The translations under genes were made by a program, and so were the position numbers. Positions 14,677 to 19,467 of a stretch of DNA of 64,000 nucleotides are shown one piece after another. The notes under the pieces are model-generated. The model searched no databases and was not told the DNA's origin. It was given only the letters and a program-made list of their open reading frames with translations. The stretch's first letter is position 1, and every line of letters starts with the position of its first letter. The stretch is from contig CAWBPO010000001.1 in assembly GCA_963790795.1 (NCBI GenBank), positions 268,073-332,072 on the forward strand. The letters are read 5' to 3'. The stretch comes from an uncultured bacterium. Its GTDB lineage: Bacteria > Patescibacteriota > Minisyncoccia > Minisyncoccales > RBG-13-42-11.

Positions 14677-15696
14677 ATGCAAGAAAACAACTCAATCCAA
14701 ATAAACAAAGTTTTAATAACCGGCATAGGCGGTTTTGTCGGCAGCCACTTAGCAGACTATATTGTCACTAAGTTTCCTAATGTTCAGGTTTTGGGGTTGA
14801 CGCGCTGGTGGGAGCCGAGAGAAAACATCAAGCAAAGCATAGATAAGATTAAATTATGTTACGGCGATTTGGTGGATTTACCTTCCCTTGAAACTCTTTT
14901 GCAGGAGCATAAGCCAGACGTGATTTTCCATCTAGCTGCGCAGTCATACGTAGATTTCAGTTTTTGGGCGCCCATTACCACCTTAGACACCAATGTGATA
15001 GGCACAGCGAATTTATTGGAAGCTGTAAGAAAGTTGAAAGCCAGTTCAGGGTACGATCCGATAATCCAAATAGCCAGTTCTTCAGAATGCTACGGTCAGG
15101 TAAAAGAAAATGAAGTTCCGATAAAAGAAACCAATCCTTTCAGGCCGGCTTCCCCGTATGCTGTAAGCAAGGTGGCAGAAGACATGCTGGCTTTTCAATA
15201 CTGGCTGTCCTGGAAAGTTAAAACCATCAGGACGAGGATGTTTACCCATACCGGGCCCAGAAGAGGAGAAGTTTTCGTTGAATCTAATTTTGCCAAACAA
15301 ATTGCTGCCATTGAAGCAGGATTGCAAGAGCCGGTAGTTAAAGTTGGGAACTTGGACAGCGTGAGAACCTTTTTAGACATTAAAGACGCTATCAGAGCTT
15401 ACTGGCTGTTAGTAAACAAATGTTCTCCTGGCGAAGTTTACAATGTCGGCGGAAAAGAGACTATGACCGTGGGCGAAATGCTGGATAAGCTTTTAAAGCT
15501 TTCAACCGTAAAGGATATAAAAATTGAAGTTGACCCTGCCCGCTTAAGGCCTTCGGATGTTACCTTGCAGATTCCATGCGTTGACAAGTTTAAGCAGGCG
15601 ACCGGCTGGGAACCAGAGATTAAATTCGATCAAACTTTGGAGGATATTCTGAATTATTGGCGGGATTATTATAAAAGAGAAAAGCAAAATGTCTAA
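14677..15696 (+). CDS. GDP-mannose 4,6-dehydratase-family SDR (candidate GDP-heptose 4,6-dehydratase/C4-oxidase)
   Basis: VLITGIGGFVGSHLADYI, catalytic YAVSK, HTGPRRGEVFVESNFAKQI and VGNLDSVRTFLDIKDAIRAYWLL parallel GMD motifs (SPRRGxxFVTRKI; GNLDAKRDW). Confidence 0.7.
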   Translation: MQENNSIQINKVLITGIGGFVGSHLADYIVTKFPNVQVLGLTRWWEPRENIKQSIDKIKLCYGDLVDLPSLETLLQEHKPDVIFHLAAQSYVDFSFWAPITTLDTNVIGTANLLEAVRKLKASSGYDPIIQIASSSECYGQVKENEVPIKETNPFRPASPYAVSKVAEDMLAFQYWLSWKVKTIRTRMFTHTGPRRGEVFVESNFAKQIAAIEAGLQEPVVKVGNLDSVRTFLDIKDAIRAYWLLVNKCSPGEVYNVGGKETMTVGEMLDKLLKLSTVKDIKIEVDPARLRPSDVTLQIPCVDKFKQATGWEPEIKFDQTLEDILNYWRDYYKREKQNV

Positions 15697-16651
15697 GTTG
15701 AATTTAGAACTTTATAAAAAGTTATATTTAATCAGGAAAGCTGAGGCAGAGATTTGCAAGCATTATCCGGAAAATGAAATGAAAACGCCTATGCACATGT
15801 CTATGGGAAGCGAGGCTATTTCTGTCGGGGTTTGCCAGGCTCTTAAAAAGCAGGACCAGGTTTTCGGCACTTACCGTTCGCACGCTCTTTATTTGGCAAA
15901 AGCATCGGAAACTGATAAATTTTTTGCTGAAATGTATGGCAGAGCAACCGGCAGTGCCAAAGGAAAAGCAGGTTCCATGCATTTGTCTTTTTCTGAAACA
16001 GGTTTTATGGGCGCTTCAGCCATTGTGGCCAGTAACATTCCTTTGGCTGTGGGAGCAGCTTTTGCCAATAAATTCAAAAGGAACGGTCGAATTACGGCAG
16101 TATTCTTTGGCGATGGCGCAGCTGACGAAGGCAATTTTTGGGAAAGTTTGAACGTTGCCTGTTTGATGCGGCTGCCGATATTGTTTGTCTGCGAAGATAA
16201 TGATTTAGCCATGCATACATATAAATCAGAGAGGAACGGCTATAAATCTTTGAGCGCCATTGTATCAAAATTCGATTGCCATGTTTTTGGCAGTGAAACT
16301 ACTGATGCAGAAGCAATTTTTAAACTTGCAAAGAAAGCGATAGAGCTGATTAAAAAGACTCAGCGGCCCGCTTTCTTGCATTTGAGATATTACCGTTATC
16401 TGGAGCATGTTGGCATTTATGAGGACTTTGATGGCGGTTACCGCTCAAGGAAAGATTTTGAAGCGTGGTACAAACGCGATCCGATAATTCTGCAAAGGAA
16501 GAAATTATTGAAATCAAGAATTAAGGAAAAATCTATTTTAGCCATTGAGCAGAAAATAGATAAACAAGTAGAAAAAAGCGTAAAGTTAGCCCAAAAAGCG
16601 CCCTTTGCTGGAAAGGACGAGCTCTACGCCAATGTTTTTTATGAAAAATAG
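15689..16651 (+). CDS. thiamine-diphosphate-dependent dehydrogenase E1 component, alpha subunit-like
   Basis: [14 protein letters not shown]..., [12 protein letters not shown] and ThDP-binding [36 protein letters not shown]. Confidence 0.85.
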   Translation: [320 protein letters not shown]

Positions 16652-17687: not shown

Positions 17688-18514
17688 TGAATTTTAAAAA
17701 AATTAAAGAAAAATCAAATTGGATAAGGAAACAAGCTTTAGAAATGGCGGTTTCTGCTGGAAAAGGTCATTTAGGAGGAGCTTTTTCTTGCGTAGAAATT
17801 TTAGTAGCACTTTTTTACGGCCGCATTTTAAGGTTCTCTCCTCGAAAAAAGAAGGATCCGAATAGAGATAGATTTATTCTGAGTAAGGGTCATGCTTGTT
17901 TGACATTGTATTCTATTTTGGGCGATTTAGGTTTTTTTAGTAAACAACAACTGAAAAACTATGGTAAAGACGGTTCTCTTTTGGGCGGTCATCCAGACCA
18001 TTATACTCCAGGAGTAGAAGTTTCTACGGGTTCTTTGGGTCACGGTTTGGGAATTGGTTGTGGTTTGGCTTTAAGCGCGAAACTGAACCATAAATCTTTT
18101 ATTACTGTGGTGCTTTTGGGGGACGGTGAATGTTGCGAAGGTTCAGTATGGGAAGCTGCCACTTTTGCTTCTGCCCAAAAATTAAACAATTTAGTTGCAA
18201 TAGTTGATAATAATAAAGTAGGCGCGACTTCTCCGACTAAAAAATATGTAGGGCCCATGTCTTGGACTGGAAAATGGAGAGCTTTCGGTTGGGATGTTAA
18301 AGAAATAGATGGCCATAATTTTAAAGATATTTTTTCTGTTTTAAAAGATATTCACTCAAGAAAATCAAAAAGGCCATTAGTTATTGTGGCTAATACTATT
18401 AAGGGCAAAGGAGTATCTTTTATGGAGAACGATTTTCATTGGCATCATGGTATTCCCAAGGGAGAACTCTTAGAACAAGCAAGAAAAGAATTAAATAAAC
18501 CGCAAAATTTATGA
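17687..18514 (+). CDS. transketolase, N-terminal (ThDP-binding) subunit
   Basis: GHLGGAFSCVEILVALFY, DRFILSKGHACLTLYSIL, GSLGHGLGIGCGLA and LGDGECCEGSVWEAATFA...AIVDNNK. Confidence 0.85.
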   Translation: MNFKKIKEKSNWIRKQALEMAVSAGKGHLGGAFSCVEILVALFYGRILRFSPRKKKDPNRDRFILSKGHACLTLYSILGDLGFFSKQQLKNYGKDGSLLGGHPDHYTPGVEVSTGSLGHGLGIGCGLALSAKLNHKSFITVVLLGDGECCEGSVWEAATFASAQKLNNLVAIVDNNKVGATSPTKKYVGPMSWTGKWRAFGWDVKEIDGHNFKDIFSVLKDIHSRKSKRPLVIVANTIKGKGVSFMENDFHWHHGIPKGELLEQARKELNKPQNL

Positions 18515-19467
18515 GTAATAAACCGAAGACAAAAATTTTATACACTGATATGCGCGATGCAGTTTTTGAAGAATTGTATCTTATTGCAAAGAAAGACCGA
18601 GATGTAATTTTACTAACAGGAGACCAAGGGGCGAAAAGTTTTGAAAAGTTTCAAAAAAACATTCCGTCGCAATTTATTAACATGGGACCGGCTGAACAAA
18701 ACATTATAAGTGTTGCCGCTGGCCTTGCTTTAGGAGGAAAAAAGGTTTTTACCCACGCTATTGCAAGCTTTATTACATCACGCTGTTATGAACAAATTAA
18801 AATTGATATTGGATTGATGAATTTACCTGTAACCATTTTGGGCGTTGGCGGAGGTTATTCTTATGAAAGTGATGGACCCACTCATCATTCAAATCAAGAT
18901 CTAGCTATAATGAGAGCAATTCCCGGATTAACTATTTTAAACGCTTCAGATCCAATAAGTTTGGCGAATTTTCCCGCTTTGGCCTATAACAGTCCCAGTC
19001 CGGTCTATATTCGTTTCGATAAAGGGAACTATCCTTTTATTTACAAAGCTAATCATAATTTTAAAAATGGCTTACACATGATTAAACCTGGTAATGATTT
19101 AATCATTGTTTCTACGGGAATTATGACCCACCGAGCGTTAGAGGTTGCCCAAATTCTTAAAGAACATAACATCAAGGCTGGGGTTATCGATTTATATCGC
19201 ATAAAGCCAATTAATGAAAACCTGCTATTAAAATTTTTGCAAAAAACCAAAAATATTATTACCATAGAAGAGCACTTAATGTACGGAGGAATTGGCACTA
19301 TTATAAGTGATTTTTTATGCGACCACAATCTTCCTTTAAGATTTAAACGTTTTGGTCTCGTCGATAATTACTGTTTTAACTACGGTAGTCGTGGCTACAT
19401 GCATAAAAAAGCATGCCTCGATGTTAACGCTATAGTTAGACAGATCCTTTTATGGTTAAAAAAGTAA
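18511..19467 (+). CDS. transketolase, C-terminal (pyrimidine-binding + C-terminal domain) subunit
   Basis: FINMGPAEQNIISVAAGLALGGKKVF, GPTHHSNQDLAIMRAIPGLTIL. Start overlaps the upstream stop (ATGA). Confidence 0.85.
   Translation: MSNKPKTKILYTDMRDAVFEELYLIAKKDRDVILLTGDQGAKSFEKFQKNIPSQFINMGPAEQNIISVAAGLALGGKKVFTHAIASFITSRCYEQIKIDIGLMNLPVTILGVGGGYSYESDGPTHHSNQDLAIMRAIPGLTILNASDPISLANFPALAYNSPSPVYIRFDKGNYPFIYKANHNFKNGLHMIKPGNDLIIVSTGIMTHRALEVAQILKEHNIKAGVIDLYRIKPINENLLLKFLQKTKNIITIEEHLMYGGIGTIISDFLCDHNLPLRFKRFGLVDNYCFNYGSRGYMHKKACLDVNAIVRQILLWLKK

Follow-up and report, generated by a model that had tools for sequence, protein, structure and literature searches.

The alpha-KADH2 class of enzymes comprises AviB1/B2 of avilamycin, Pau11/12 of paulomycin, AlmDI/DII of aldgamycin, and KbDH-alpha/beta of kibdelomycin; KbDH-alpha/beta ligates pyruvate to cyclic ketones in vitro, and the chemistry of AviB1/B2 and Pau11/12 has been proposed (PMC12247030; PMC4753412). 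About 120 clusters of this class are known, from the secondary metabolism of actinomycetes, and for kibdelomycin a transaminated branch has been noted in review (PMC12247030). The aldo-keto reductase (AKR) Pau7, which is encoded with an E1-type brancher, reduces a C-acetyl branch to hydroxyethyl (PMC4753412). Split-gene transketolases (TKs) have been proposed as keto-sugar branchers in the miharamycin/amipurimycin systems, where 13 sequences, 'all from Streptomycetes', are on record (PMC12247030), and a split TK is the only transketolase of Carboxydothermus hydrogenoformans (PMC7661550). In lipopolysaccharide (LPS), branched sugars are the work of YerE/YerF (yersiniose A), ErwE, MMAR_2332, and MygE (PMC9306805). 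Here, we describe a stretch of 64,000 nucleotides from an uncultured Patescibacteriota bacterium (contig CAWBPO010000001.1, positions 268,073 to 332,072; hereafter, the whole stretch is called the window), in which three two-subunit enzymes dependent on thiamine diphosphate (ThDP)—an E1 alpha/beta pair and two split transketolases, TK1 and TK2—are encoded within a polysaccharide locus.

We consider it probable that these three ThDP carboligases modify keto-sugars that are nucleotide-activated and destined for a cell-surface glycan; all three look unlike enzymes of central metabolism. Domains, gene neighbourhoods, a gene fusion, and active-site substitutions were computed directly, and from them we infer the pathway chemistry, for which the transfer of two-carbon (C2) units onto keto-sugar nucleotides appears to be the best reading. 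An earlier note on this DNA had proposed ThDP-dependent C2 transfer onto either keto-sugar nucleotides or, by analogy with lincomycin, sugar phosphates awaiting GDP activation. The first version gains support from synteny, gene fusion, active-site remodelling, and precedent (PMC12247030, PMC4753412); the second does not fit the gene order, according to which C2 transfer comes later than nucleotide activation and 4,6-dehydration.

All open reading frames (ORFs) of the window of at least 100 aa were scanned against Pfam, and curated NCBIfam cut-offs were also applied. Gene order was compared with homologous loci on other contigs (L005–L178), whose neighbouring genes were labelled by using window proteins as probes, such that genes unlike the window content stay unlabelled; two contexts of unprobed gene types (L027 and L056) were spot-checked with Pfam. 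In the window, domain matches of E = 1e-28 to 1e-80 fall on full-length, tightly packed, and overlapping genes, and chance matches can therefore be set aside. Around the ThDP genes, the polysaccharide locus contains a Wzx flippase, a GDP-mannose-type 4,6-dehydratase, a B12-radical SAM enzyme, glycosyltransferases, three short-chain dehydrogenases/reductases (SDRs) resembling GDP-fucose synthase, one RmlC-like epimerase, two AKRs, and three or four methyltransferase-like genes (one at 35405).

The E1 alpha/beta layout that had been read from the translations is borne out by Pfam: E1_dh and Transket_pyr + Transketolase_C occupy separate subunits, and E1 alpha carries the ThDP motif GDGAADEGN...EDN, of the GDG...N type. 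For E1 beta, the ATG at 16641 is favoured over an upstream TTG at 16605 by the lengths of homologues (346–347 aa). Neither subunit reaches the equivalog level of a dehydrogenase model. E1 alpha scores 270.1 bits against PDH_E1_alph_y (NCBIfam cut-off 393.85), and E1 beta scores 318.6 bits against PRK09212 (cut-off 321) and 304.3 bits against another pyruvate dehydrogenase (PDH) model (cut-off 454). The E1 alpha family is large, with 3424 matches, the 120 best of which are all at least 64% identical. When aligned with Geobacillus PDH E1 beta (1w85_B), E1 beta follows the structure to residue 325 and then continues into a 22-aa C-terminal extension (window 17620–17687). This tail, ...DLSxExFYS[HY]ExKF[KR]GPF, is near-invariant in about 55 loci (L101–L153), ends in KFKGPF in the window, and is found neither in Geobacillus PDH E1 beta nor in the non-cassette E1 beta proteins of L088 and L065. 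Loss of the histidines of lipoamide chemistry was also considered and ruled out, as structure alignments show that both subunits keep them.

The statement that no lipoyl-E2 or E3 gene occurs in the window is confirmed, there being no lipoyl, 2-oxoacid_dh, or E3-type domain among the scanned ORFs. The description of the pair as 'orphan' is not, because a widespread cassette is built around it, with a 4,6-dehydratase as its anchor. A metagenome scan yielded eighty further loci (58–76% identity). Upstream sequence is visible in 74 of them, and in 63 of these 74 a 4,6-dehydratase homologue precedes E1 alpha by at most two genes. Where at least 6 kb of downstream sequence is available (25 loci), each of two GDP-fucose-synthase-like SDR types is present in twenty-four, an RmlC-like gene in twenty-three, a GHMP kinase in eighteen, and a nucleotidyltransferase in thirteen. 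None of the eighty loci contains a lipoyl E2; the single match of a motif scan, in a methyltransferase-like ORF, is due to chance. Already the first contexts retrieved had the order 4,6-dehydratase, E1 alpha, E1 beta, and, further on, SDR and RmlC-like gene, without E2 or E3 and with genes for a GHMP kinase, nucleotidyltransferase, DegT, and a B12-radical SAM protein close by. The commonest cassette reads 4,6-dehydratase–E1 alpha–E1 beta–MT314 (a 314-aa methyltransferase-like protein)–260-aa gene–SDR–RmlC–SDR–GHMP kinase–(GmhA)–nucleotidyltransferase, and in many cassettes that lack a TK, MT314 follows E1 beta. In layout and gene context, with deoxysugar-nucleotide surroundings, an adjoining enzyme that makes a keto-sugar, and no E2/E3 in the window or related loci, the pair thus fits the AviB1/AviB2 (alpha-KADH2) sugar-branching class. 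As separate observations, the cassette 4,6-dehydratase of one related contig of the candidate phyla radiation (CPR) contains an intein (Intein_splicing; 669 aa, L005 2381–4390), and a GARS gene on another has a faint LAGLIDADG match (L014 18206–20464).

Pfam likewise confirms both split transketolases, TK1 directly downstream of E1 beta and TK2 beside DegT, the DegT gene overlapping that of TK2-C by 4 nt. The shared motifs listed in the earlier note, DRFILSKGHA/DRFVLSKGHG and GSLGHGLGIGCG/GSLGHGLSIGVG, are present in the TK1/TK2 translations. Its claim that the pairs are paralogous stands as far as homology goes, but they are not simple duplicates. They belong to different subfamilies with different partners—E1, MT314-like protein, and AKR for TK1, and DegT for TK2—and share only 46% identity in the N subunits and 33% in the C subunits, by which measure they are old paralogues without a recent duplication.

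Close relatives of TK1-N (61–79% identical) are found within E1 cassettes, directly behind E1 beta or a few genes away. Pairs of TK1 type follow E1 beta in L005–L011, L102, L104, L111, L114, L130, L169, and L178, directly so in the window and in all of these except L005–L006; L006 also bears a YerE/ALS-like gene. The Levybacteria loci L007–L009 (4,6-dehydratase–E1 alpha–E1 beta–TK-N–TK-C–MT314–SDR–141-aa protein–AKR–AKR–methyltransferase–RmlC–SDR–nucleotidyltransferase) reproduce the window order nearly gene for gene, and L010 and L005 repeat the pattern. In at least four loci, TK-C is fused to MT314 in a single protein of 632–650 aa (L178 10824–12743, L102 3042–4994, L111 10108–12033, and L130 7621–9519), a fusion that binds transketolase and tailoring pathway together. 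Of 31 E1 loci with 5 kb or more of downstream sequence, 8 have a transketolase and 23 do not; AKR genes occur in 5 of these 8 TK-bearing cassettes versus 3 of the 23 TK-less ones (p=0.013). A strict pairing of two ligases with two AKRs was rejected, as AKRs are also present in the E1-only loci L124, L158, and L166 and some TK-bearing cassettes have the 260-aa gene where the AKRs would sit; only the enrichment remains.

In the transketolases of yeast, Escherichia coli, and human, the sugar phosphate is held by Arg318, Ser345, His416, and Arg474, together with Asp424 (human numbering). Established structural work has further assigned handling of the donor ketol to four histidines of the N domain and activation of the cofactor to a glutamate. 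The corresponding residues were mapped by alignment to human transketolase and to the split transketolase of Carboxydothermus (6yak/6yaj); the active sites are situated where subunits meet. Both N subunits of the window keep the equivalents of His37, His77, His110, and His258, and both C subunits keep the cofactor Glu366, as do all of thirty-one glycan-class sequences save for the His110 equivalent (29/31). The sugar-phosphate site is not retained in either enzyme. His416 is Gly in both TK1-C and TK2-C, and the Ser345 loop has a one-residue deletion and no Ser. TK1-C thus reads R/K(shifted)/G/K, with Asp424 kept and Arg474 replaced by Lys (signature A/K-G-D-K at 345/416/424/474), and TK2-C reads R/K(shifted)/G/R, with Asp424 replaced by Glu (signature V/K-G-E-R), as against R/S/H/R with Asp in 6yak and Fusobacterium-type transketolases. 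First-shell changes extend to the N subunits. TK1-N has P29L, R93G, D181T, and G254H, and across the Gly416 class the Arg of 'FRK' becomes Gly/Ala, the equivalent of E. coli Asp183 becomes Leu/Thr/Met, and that of Gly262 becomes Tyr/Asp/His.

A genome scan seeded with TK2-N returned eighty split transketolases from many phyla, the C subunits of which fall into three classes; statistics were computed on seventy-seven distinct sequences. Class (i), with the canonical S-H-D-R, includes 6yak and the enzymes of Fusobacterium, Peptococcaceae, and Petroclostridium; its sole scanned context, L056, is housekeeping (FtsX, M23 peptidase, and RecN). Class (ii), S-S-L-K/R, is found in Flavobacterium, Emticicia, Runella (L025–L096; Ser at His416 and Leu at both Asp424 and Arg318), and Paenibacillus, two loci of which have a related variant that retains Arg318. 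The only class (ii) context scanned is a DeoR/sugar-ABC-transporter/FGGY-kinase operon (L027 7788–17849), the neighbours in other Bacteroidota loci of this class have matching sizes, and class (ii) probably serves an uncharacterised sugar catabolic pathway. Class (iii), with Gly416 and D/E/L/A at 424, includes TK1 and TK2, and all of its contigs of adequate length show 4,6-dehydratase, DegT, nucleotidyltransferase, PglC, and heptose genes around the TK. At least one strict sugar-nucleotide gene lies within seven genes of 23 of 25 Gly416 enzymes and of 1 of 52 in the other classes (Fisher p=3e-16). In the window, each split TK has a keto-sugar-forming enzyme within its sugar-tailoring cluster: the 4,6-dehydratase gene is two genes ahead of TK1, and a PglF-like dehydratase shares the operon of TK2.

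The canonical and catabolic split transketolases form clades apart from the Gly416 class. The latter is found in glycan loci of Patescibacteria, Chloroflexota, Burkholderiales, Nitrospirota, Bacillota, Planctomycetota, and Verrucomicrobiota; some of its carriers, such as Paraburkholderia, Limnohabitans, and Planctomycetota, have large genomes. Among the 150 representatives of 50%-identity clusters nearest to TK1-C, 146 have Gly416 and none has His416, and position 424 varies widely, indicating a large and diversified class. A split transketolase in a Thermodesulfobacteriota metagenome-assembled genome (L063 6098) keeps His416 and has Ala at Asp424 and Arg474; with genes for a 4,6-dehydratase and a nucleotidyltransferase nearby, it may represent another variant linked to glycans.

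TK2-type pairs, 64–86% identical to that of the window, recur on the Patescibacteria contigs L012–L015 and L018 in a block of methyltransferase, PglC, TK-N, TK-C, DegT, PglF, and Wzy_C/TPR genes, with the PglC-like gene directly upstream of TK2 in L012–L014 and L018. The TK-N–TK-C–DegT series, with overlapping stop and start codons, is shared by these CPR contigs with Dehalococcoidia (L016/L017), Nitrospiraceae (L019), and Bacillota (L046). DegT is immediately 3' of the TK2-type pair in L012–L019 and L046, an adjacency that spans four phyla, and outside the CPR these three genes are the invariant core. On a sister contig, TK2-N is 97% identical and E1 alpha only 75%, which suggests that the TK2 block, whose neighbours are MurB, spermidine synthase, and SecA, acts as the conserved flank of a variable glycan locus.

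The earlier note considered it unusual for one glycan locus to have three such enzymes; they are not unique to the window, as the same trio (55–82% identity) is present in the Dehalococcoidia assembly GCA_049586675.1. There, the contig (L178) carries STT3/AglB, UDP-glucose dehydrogenase, and glycosyltransferase genes, followed by a 4,6-dehydratase (74% identical to that of the window), E1 alpha (65%), E1 beta (73%), TK-N (58%), a TK-C::MT314 fusion (55%), an AKR (62% identical to AKR 2 of the window), a TylF-like methyltransferase (70%), an SDR (82%), RmlC, a further SDR, a GHMP kinase (68%), GmhA, GmhB, and Wzx. A TK2-type pair with DegT lies about 17 kb from this E1 cassette on the opposite strand, in the order 4,6-dehydratase-like SDR, TK-N, TK-C, DegT, and TylF-like methyltransferase. 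The trio is therefore a recurring design that different phyla share, probably through locus transfer. The STT3/AglB oligosaccharyltransferase adjoining the cassette (L178 83–2485), together with the Wzy_C/TPR proteins that flank the window locus, suggests that the glycan may be attached to protein.

In the pathway that we propose, GmhA, the HddA-like kinase, GmhB, and the nucleotidyltransferase would make GDP-D-glycero-D-manno-heptose, which the 4,6-dehydratase at 14677 would convert to GDP-6-deoxy-4-keto-heptose, the predicted acceptor. The E1 pair would decarboxylate pyruvate, and addition of the resulting hydroxyethyl-ThDP carbanion to the ring ketone would leave a tertiary alcohol bearing a C-acetyl group. 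TK1 would act on a keto group of the same intermediate and install a hydroxyacetyl group there by transfer of a dihydroxyethyl (glycolaldehyde) unit, with hydroxypyruvate or a small ketose as a likelier donor than a canonical ketose phosphate. Methylation, reduction, and epimerisation could then fall to the MT314-like protein, the two AKRs, the TylF-like methyltransferase, the B12-radical SAM enzyme, the RmlC-like epimerase, and the GDP-fucose-synthase-like reductases. The TK2 operon is separate from this one. In it, a UDP-4-keto-6-deoxy-N-acetylhexosamine (HexNAc) formed by the PglF-like dehydratase would receive a hydroxyacetyl branch from TK2, and DegT would transaminate a carbonyl, plausibly the branch ketone; the PglC-like transferase would then prime the lipid carrier with the resulting sugar.

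Several points weigh against this proposal. E1 and TK1 would be rivals for a single ring ketone unless the pathway produces another keto group; the E1 subunits retain the histidines that genuine PDH E1 uses for lipoamide acylation; TK2, near-identical on the sister contig and located beside core genes, could still serve the pentose-phosphate pathway as the sole transketolase; the gene-context counts cover related sequences and thus measure association rather than independent events; and the role of split-gene transketolases, none of which has been characterised, is termed 'still pending' in review (PMC12247030). A more far-reaching version, which we put forward only as a tentative possibility, would have Gly416 split transketolases be widespread NDP-keto-sugar hydroxyacetyl transferases of glycan synthesis across phyla. 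In it, E1 and TK1 would act on one GDP-6-deoxy-4-keto-heptose, giving a sugar with two C2 additions and as many as eleven carbons, and TK2 and DegT would yield an amino-hydroxyethyl-branched priming HexNAc. If this is true, many 'transketolase' calls behind the pentose-phosphate pathways inferred for Patescibacteria are glycan-tailoring enzymes.

Of the alternatives, the least unlikely places the ThDP enzymes in a glycan pathway without ring-ketone branching: the transketolases would extend the chain at an aldehyde, giving linear sugars larger than C7, or E1 or the transketolases would make acetyl/glycolyl units for N- or O-acylation of the DegT amino sugar. Aldehydes are indeed the normal acceptors of transketolases, TK1 retains Asp424, which reads the C2 hydroxyl of the acceptor, and TK2 is always paired with an aminotransferase, the product of which could be acylated. 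In quinocarcin-type pathways, moreover, transketolase-like enzymes pass glycolyl units to carrier proteins. Against this, the cassettes showed no acyl carrier, lipoyl, or CoA-ligase partner. Their constant link is to 4,6-dehydratases, which make ketones and not aldehydes, and the co-located AKR and SDR ketoreductases follow the logic of paulomycose and yersiniose.

Less likely still is an ordinary pentose-phosphate role for one or both split transketolases, with TK1 feeding sedoheptulose-7-phosphate to GmhA, which the earlier note had called the conservative interpretation, and TK2 as the housekeeping copy. GmhA does require this substrate, heptose genes share the operon of TK1, the catalytic histidines and cofactor Glu are all retained, TK2 looks like a core gene in its conservation and neighbours, and small CPR genomes may carry just one transketolase. 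A mere supply role for TK1 is nevertheless not supported, in view of the lost phosphate site, of a clade nearly confined to sugar-nucleotide loci even in organisms with large genomes, and of the 23 of 31 E1/heptose cassettes that manage without a transketolase. Conversely, L007 has a TK1-type pair though no heptose-isomerase or heptose-kinase gene was called there. Both transketolases lack His416 and the Ser345 loop, with the further Arg474 (TK1) and Asp424 (TK2) replacements, and both the fusion of TK-C to a methyltransferase-like protein and the TK2–DegT adjacency across four phyla argue against housekeeping duty.

That the E1 pair belongs to a pyruvate, acetoin, or branched-chain 2-oxoacid dehydrogenase complex with E2/E3 encoded elsewhere is highly improbable: the best models are PDH E1, narrowly missed by E1 beta, and the subunits match the human and Geobacillus PDH E1 structures at 1e-35 and 1e-66 with the catalytic His kept, yet E1 alpha falls far short of its cut-off, E2 is absent from the related loci (0/80), a 4,6-dehydratase precedes the pair in most of them, and the conserved tail is missing from the non-cassette E1 beta proteins compared. 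The earlier mention of E1-like genes in the Coxiella O-antigen region had no counterpart in the Coxiella LPS papers searched, and this claim stands unverified rather than refuted.

The features on which these arguments rest are collected in Table 1.

Table 1. Genes of the ThDP-enzyme glycan locus, with window coordinates and the domain or positional evidence for each
Feature	Coordinates	Strand	Evidence or remark
Sugar-nucleotide 4,6-dehydratase-like SDR, probably GDP-heptose/mannose	14677..15696	+	GDP_Man_Dehyd 1e-78; SSSECYG and YAVSK motifs
E1 alpha, ThDP-binding PP domain, 320 aa	15689..16651	+	E1_dh 1.3e-51
E1 beta, Pyr + TKC domains, 348 aa	16641..17687	+	Pfam Transket_pyr + Transketolase_C
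TK1 N subunit, PP domain, 275 aa	17687..18514	+	Transketolase_N 1.9e-41
TK1 C subunit, 318 aa	18511..19467	+	Transket_pyr + Transketolase_C
B12-binding radical SAM enzyme, 639 aa	19452..21371	+	Pfam B12-binding + Radical_SAM; NCBIfam all under cut-off
SDR, GDP-L-fucose-synthase-like epimerase/reductase	21378..22403	+	Same position in L007 and L169
141-aa protein	22396..22821	+	No Pfam family match; homologues equally placed in L007–L009 and L169
AKR 1, candidate branch ketoreductase	22834..23970	+	Aldo_ket_red 2.6e-65
MT314, 314-aa class-I methyltransferase-like protein	23990..24934	+	Weak Methyltransf_31/25/11 matches
AKR 2, candidate branch ketoreductase	24940..26076	+	Aldo_ket_red 6.8e-70
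TylF-like O-methyltransferase	26126..26878	+	Weak TylF/Methyltransf_24 matches
SDR	26905-27894	+	Assigned, with the next two genes, to epimerisation and 4-reduction
RmlC-like 3,5-epimerase	27891-28421	+	As above
SDR	28427-29401	+	As above
HddA-like kinase	29398-30396	+	Assigned to GDP-heptose supply
GmhA	30401-31003	+	Assigned to GDP-heptose supply
Nucleotidyltransferase::GmhB fusion	31000-32292	+	Assigned to GDP-heptose supply
PglC-like small phosphoglycosyl transferase, initiating	36230..36823	+	Bac_transf 4.8e-59
TK2 N subunit, 275 aa	37881..38708	+	Transketolase_N 1.5e-42
TK2 C subunit, 309 aa	38705..39634	+	Pyr + TKC domains
DegT/PglE-type pyridoxal phosphate (PLP) aminotransferase	39631..40737	+	DegT_DnrJ_EryC1 1.9e-106; PLP lysine motif SFYPAK; translationally coupled to TK2-C
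PglF-like membrane-anchored UDP-HexNAc 4,6-dehydratase	40709..42601	+	Polysacc_synt_2 2.4e-114; PseB and FnlA models below cut-off
Wzy_C (O-antigen ligase/PglL-like) + TPR membrane protein	42585..44765	+	End of TK2 block; kept in L012–L014 and L018

The window has a GC content of about 38%, and its + strand holds nearly all genes. Close homologues of its proteins carry the names Patescibacteria, Paceibacteria, Levybacteria, and Saccharibacteria, and DUF5667 and PG_binding proteins are also encoded; these features indicate a genome of the Patescibacteria (CPR) type. The best NCBIfam models of the dehydratase at 14677 are gmd and dTDP-glucose 4,6-dehydratase, both under cut-off. Judged by its domains, the B12-radical SAM protein is probably a C-methylase or catalyses another radical tailoring step; genes of this kind recur in related E1 cassettes, and the 141-aa protein is a companion of TK-bearing ones. 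A terminator-like hairpin (inverted repeat and T-run) at 36845–36880 lies 3' of the PglC-like gene, and a 293-aa ORF without family match (36855–37736, minus strand, same place in L018) is convergent to that gene; both indicate that the locus is split into two transcription units, one for E1/TK1 and one for TK2.

Other features of the window were noted in passing. A second Wzy_C + TPR membrane protein (4378–6627) brackets the glycan locus together with the one at 42585–44765. Just upstream of the locus is a type IV toxin–antitoxin pair, a DUF6922 protein and an AbiEii-type nucleotidyltransferase toxin (10698–11581). A DUF4430 + DUF6580 gene pair (33420–34436) lies between glycosyltransferases of the glycan operon; one idea is that it takes up the cofactor for the B12-radical SAM enzyme. 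Further downstream, a gene for a TrwB/TraG-like coupling-protein ATPase with a treble-clef zinc finger (56336–58009) overlaps the start of a short phosphoglycerate kinase gene (344 aa, 57987–59021). RNase P RNA of bacterial class A is encoded at 60859–61249 on the minus strand (101.8 bits; gathering score 100), and no tRNA genes were found across the whole 64 kb.

C-branched sugars are rare and of immunological and pharmacological importance, and the enzymes that make their tertiary alcohols are sought as biocatalysts. E1-type branchers and split transketolases both seem to occur commonly in the cell-surface glycan loci of bacteria, cultivated or not, and Gly at the His416 column with an altered Ser345 loop offers a usable signature of the glycan transketolase class. 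Cultured carriers are at hand (Aquitalea pelogenes, Limnohabitans sp. DCL3, Pelomonas candidula, and Paraburkholderia xenovorans RL17-329-BIC-A). In reduced genomes, an annotation as 'transketolase' or 'PDH E1' may not prove central metabolism.

The E1 pair resembles the alpha-KADH2 enzymes, to which it is likened by layout and context, in being a two-subunit E1 without E2/E3 among deoxysugar genes, with an expected C2 addition from pyruvate, after which the branch would be reduced, methylated, or transaminated. The known members belong to actinomycete antibiotic clusters and TDP-deoxyhexoses or pentoses, whereas the window E1 belongs to a Patescibacteria-type cell-surface glycan locus with GDP-heptose genes and a GDP-mannose-type dehydratase, is part of a large environmental family, and has a C-terminal tail of its own. 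Pau7 provides the precedent for an AKR alongside an E1-type brancher, but its substrate is the finished antibiotic and not a nucleotide sugar. The window cassette has two AKRs of 378 aa, for which branch reduction is a candidate role and whose best NCBIfam models, methylglyoxal and 2,5-diketogluconate reductases, are under cut-off.

With the miharamycin/amipurimycin enzymes, TK1 and TK2 share, by gene context, split N and C genes in a sugar-tailoring cluster and a proposed ketol transfer onto a keto-sugar. They differ in that their clade numbers at least 146 clusters at 50% identity from many phyla, as opposed to 13 Streptomycete sequences, and in that two TK subtypes co-occur with an E1-type brancher. 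The nearest solved structure is that of the C. hydrogenoformans split transketolase (6yak/6yaj; 1e-65 for TK1-N, and 1e-42 and 1e-64 for the C subunits of TK1 and TK2, respectively), which has the same alpha2beta2 split architecture and catalytic histidines. Its acceptor site is the full R/S/H/D/R, whereas TK1 and TK2 have Gly at His416, an altered, shortened Ser345 loop, and more first-shell changes.

YerE/YerF follow the same envelope-glycan logic of a 4-keto-deoxysugar nucleotide, a ThDP carboligase, and an NAD(P)H ketoreductase (PMC9306805). YerE-type enzymes are single-chain members of the decarboxylase superfamily (TPP_enzyme_N/M/C), of which Pfam finds none among the window ORFs; the E1 and transketolase types take their place. 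Compared with these systems, what is new here is the presence of alpha-KADH2-type enzymes and split transketolases in cell-surface glycan loci of Patescibacteria and Chloroflexota (and, for the transketolases, of many more phyla, cultivated Burkholderiales included), the link to GDP-heptose chemistry, the occurrence of two TK subtypes beside E1 in one locus, and a sequence signature for glycan transketolases.

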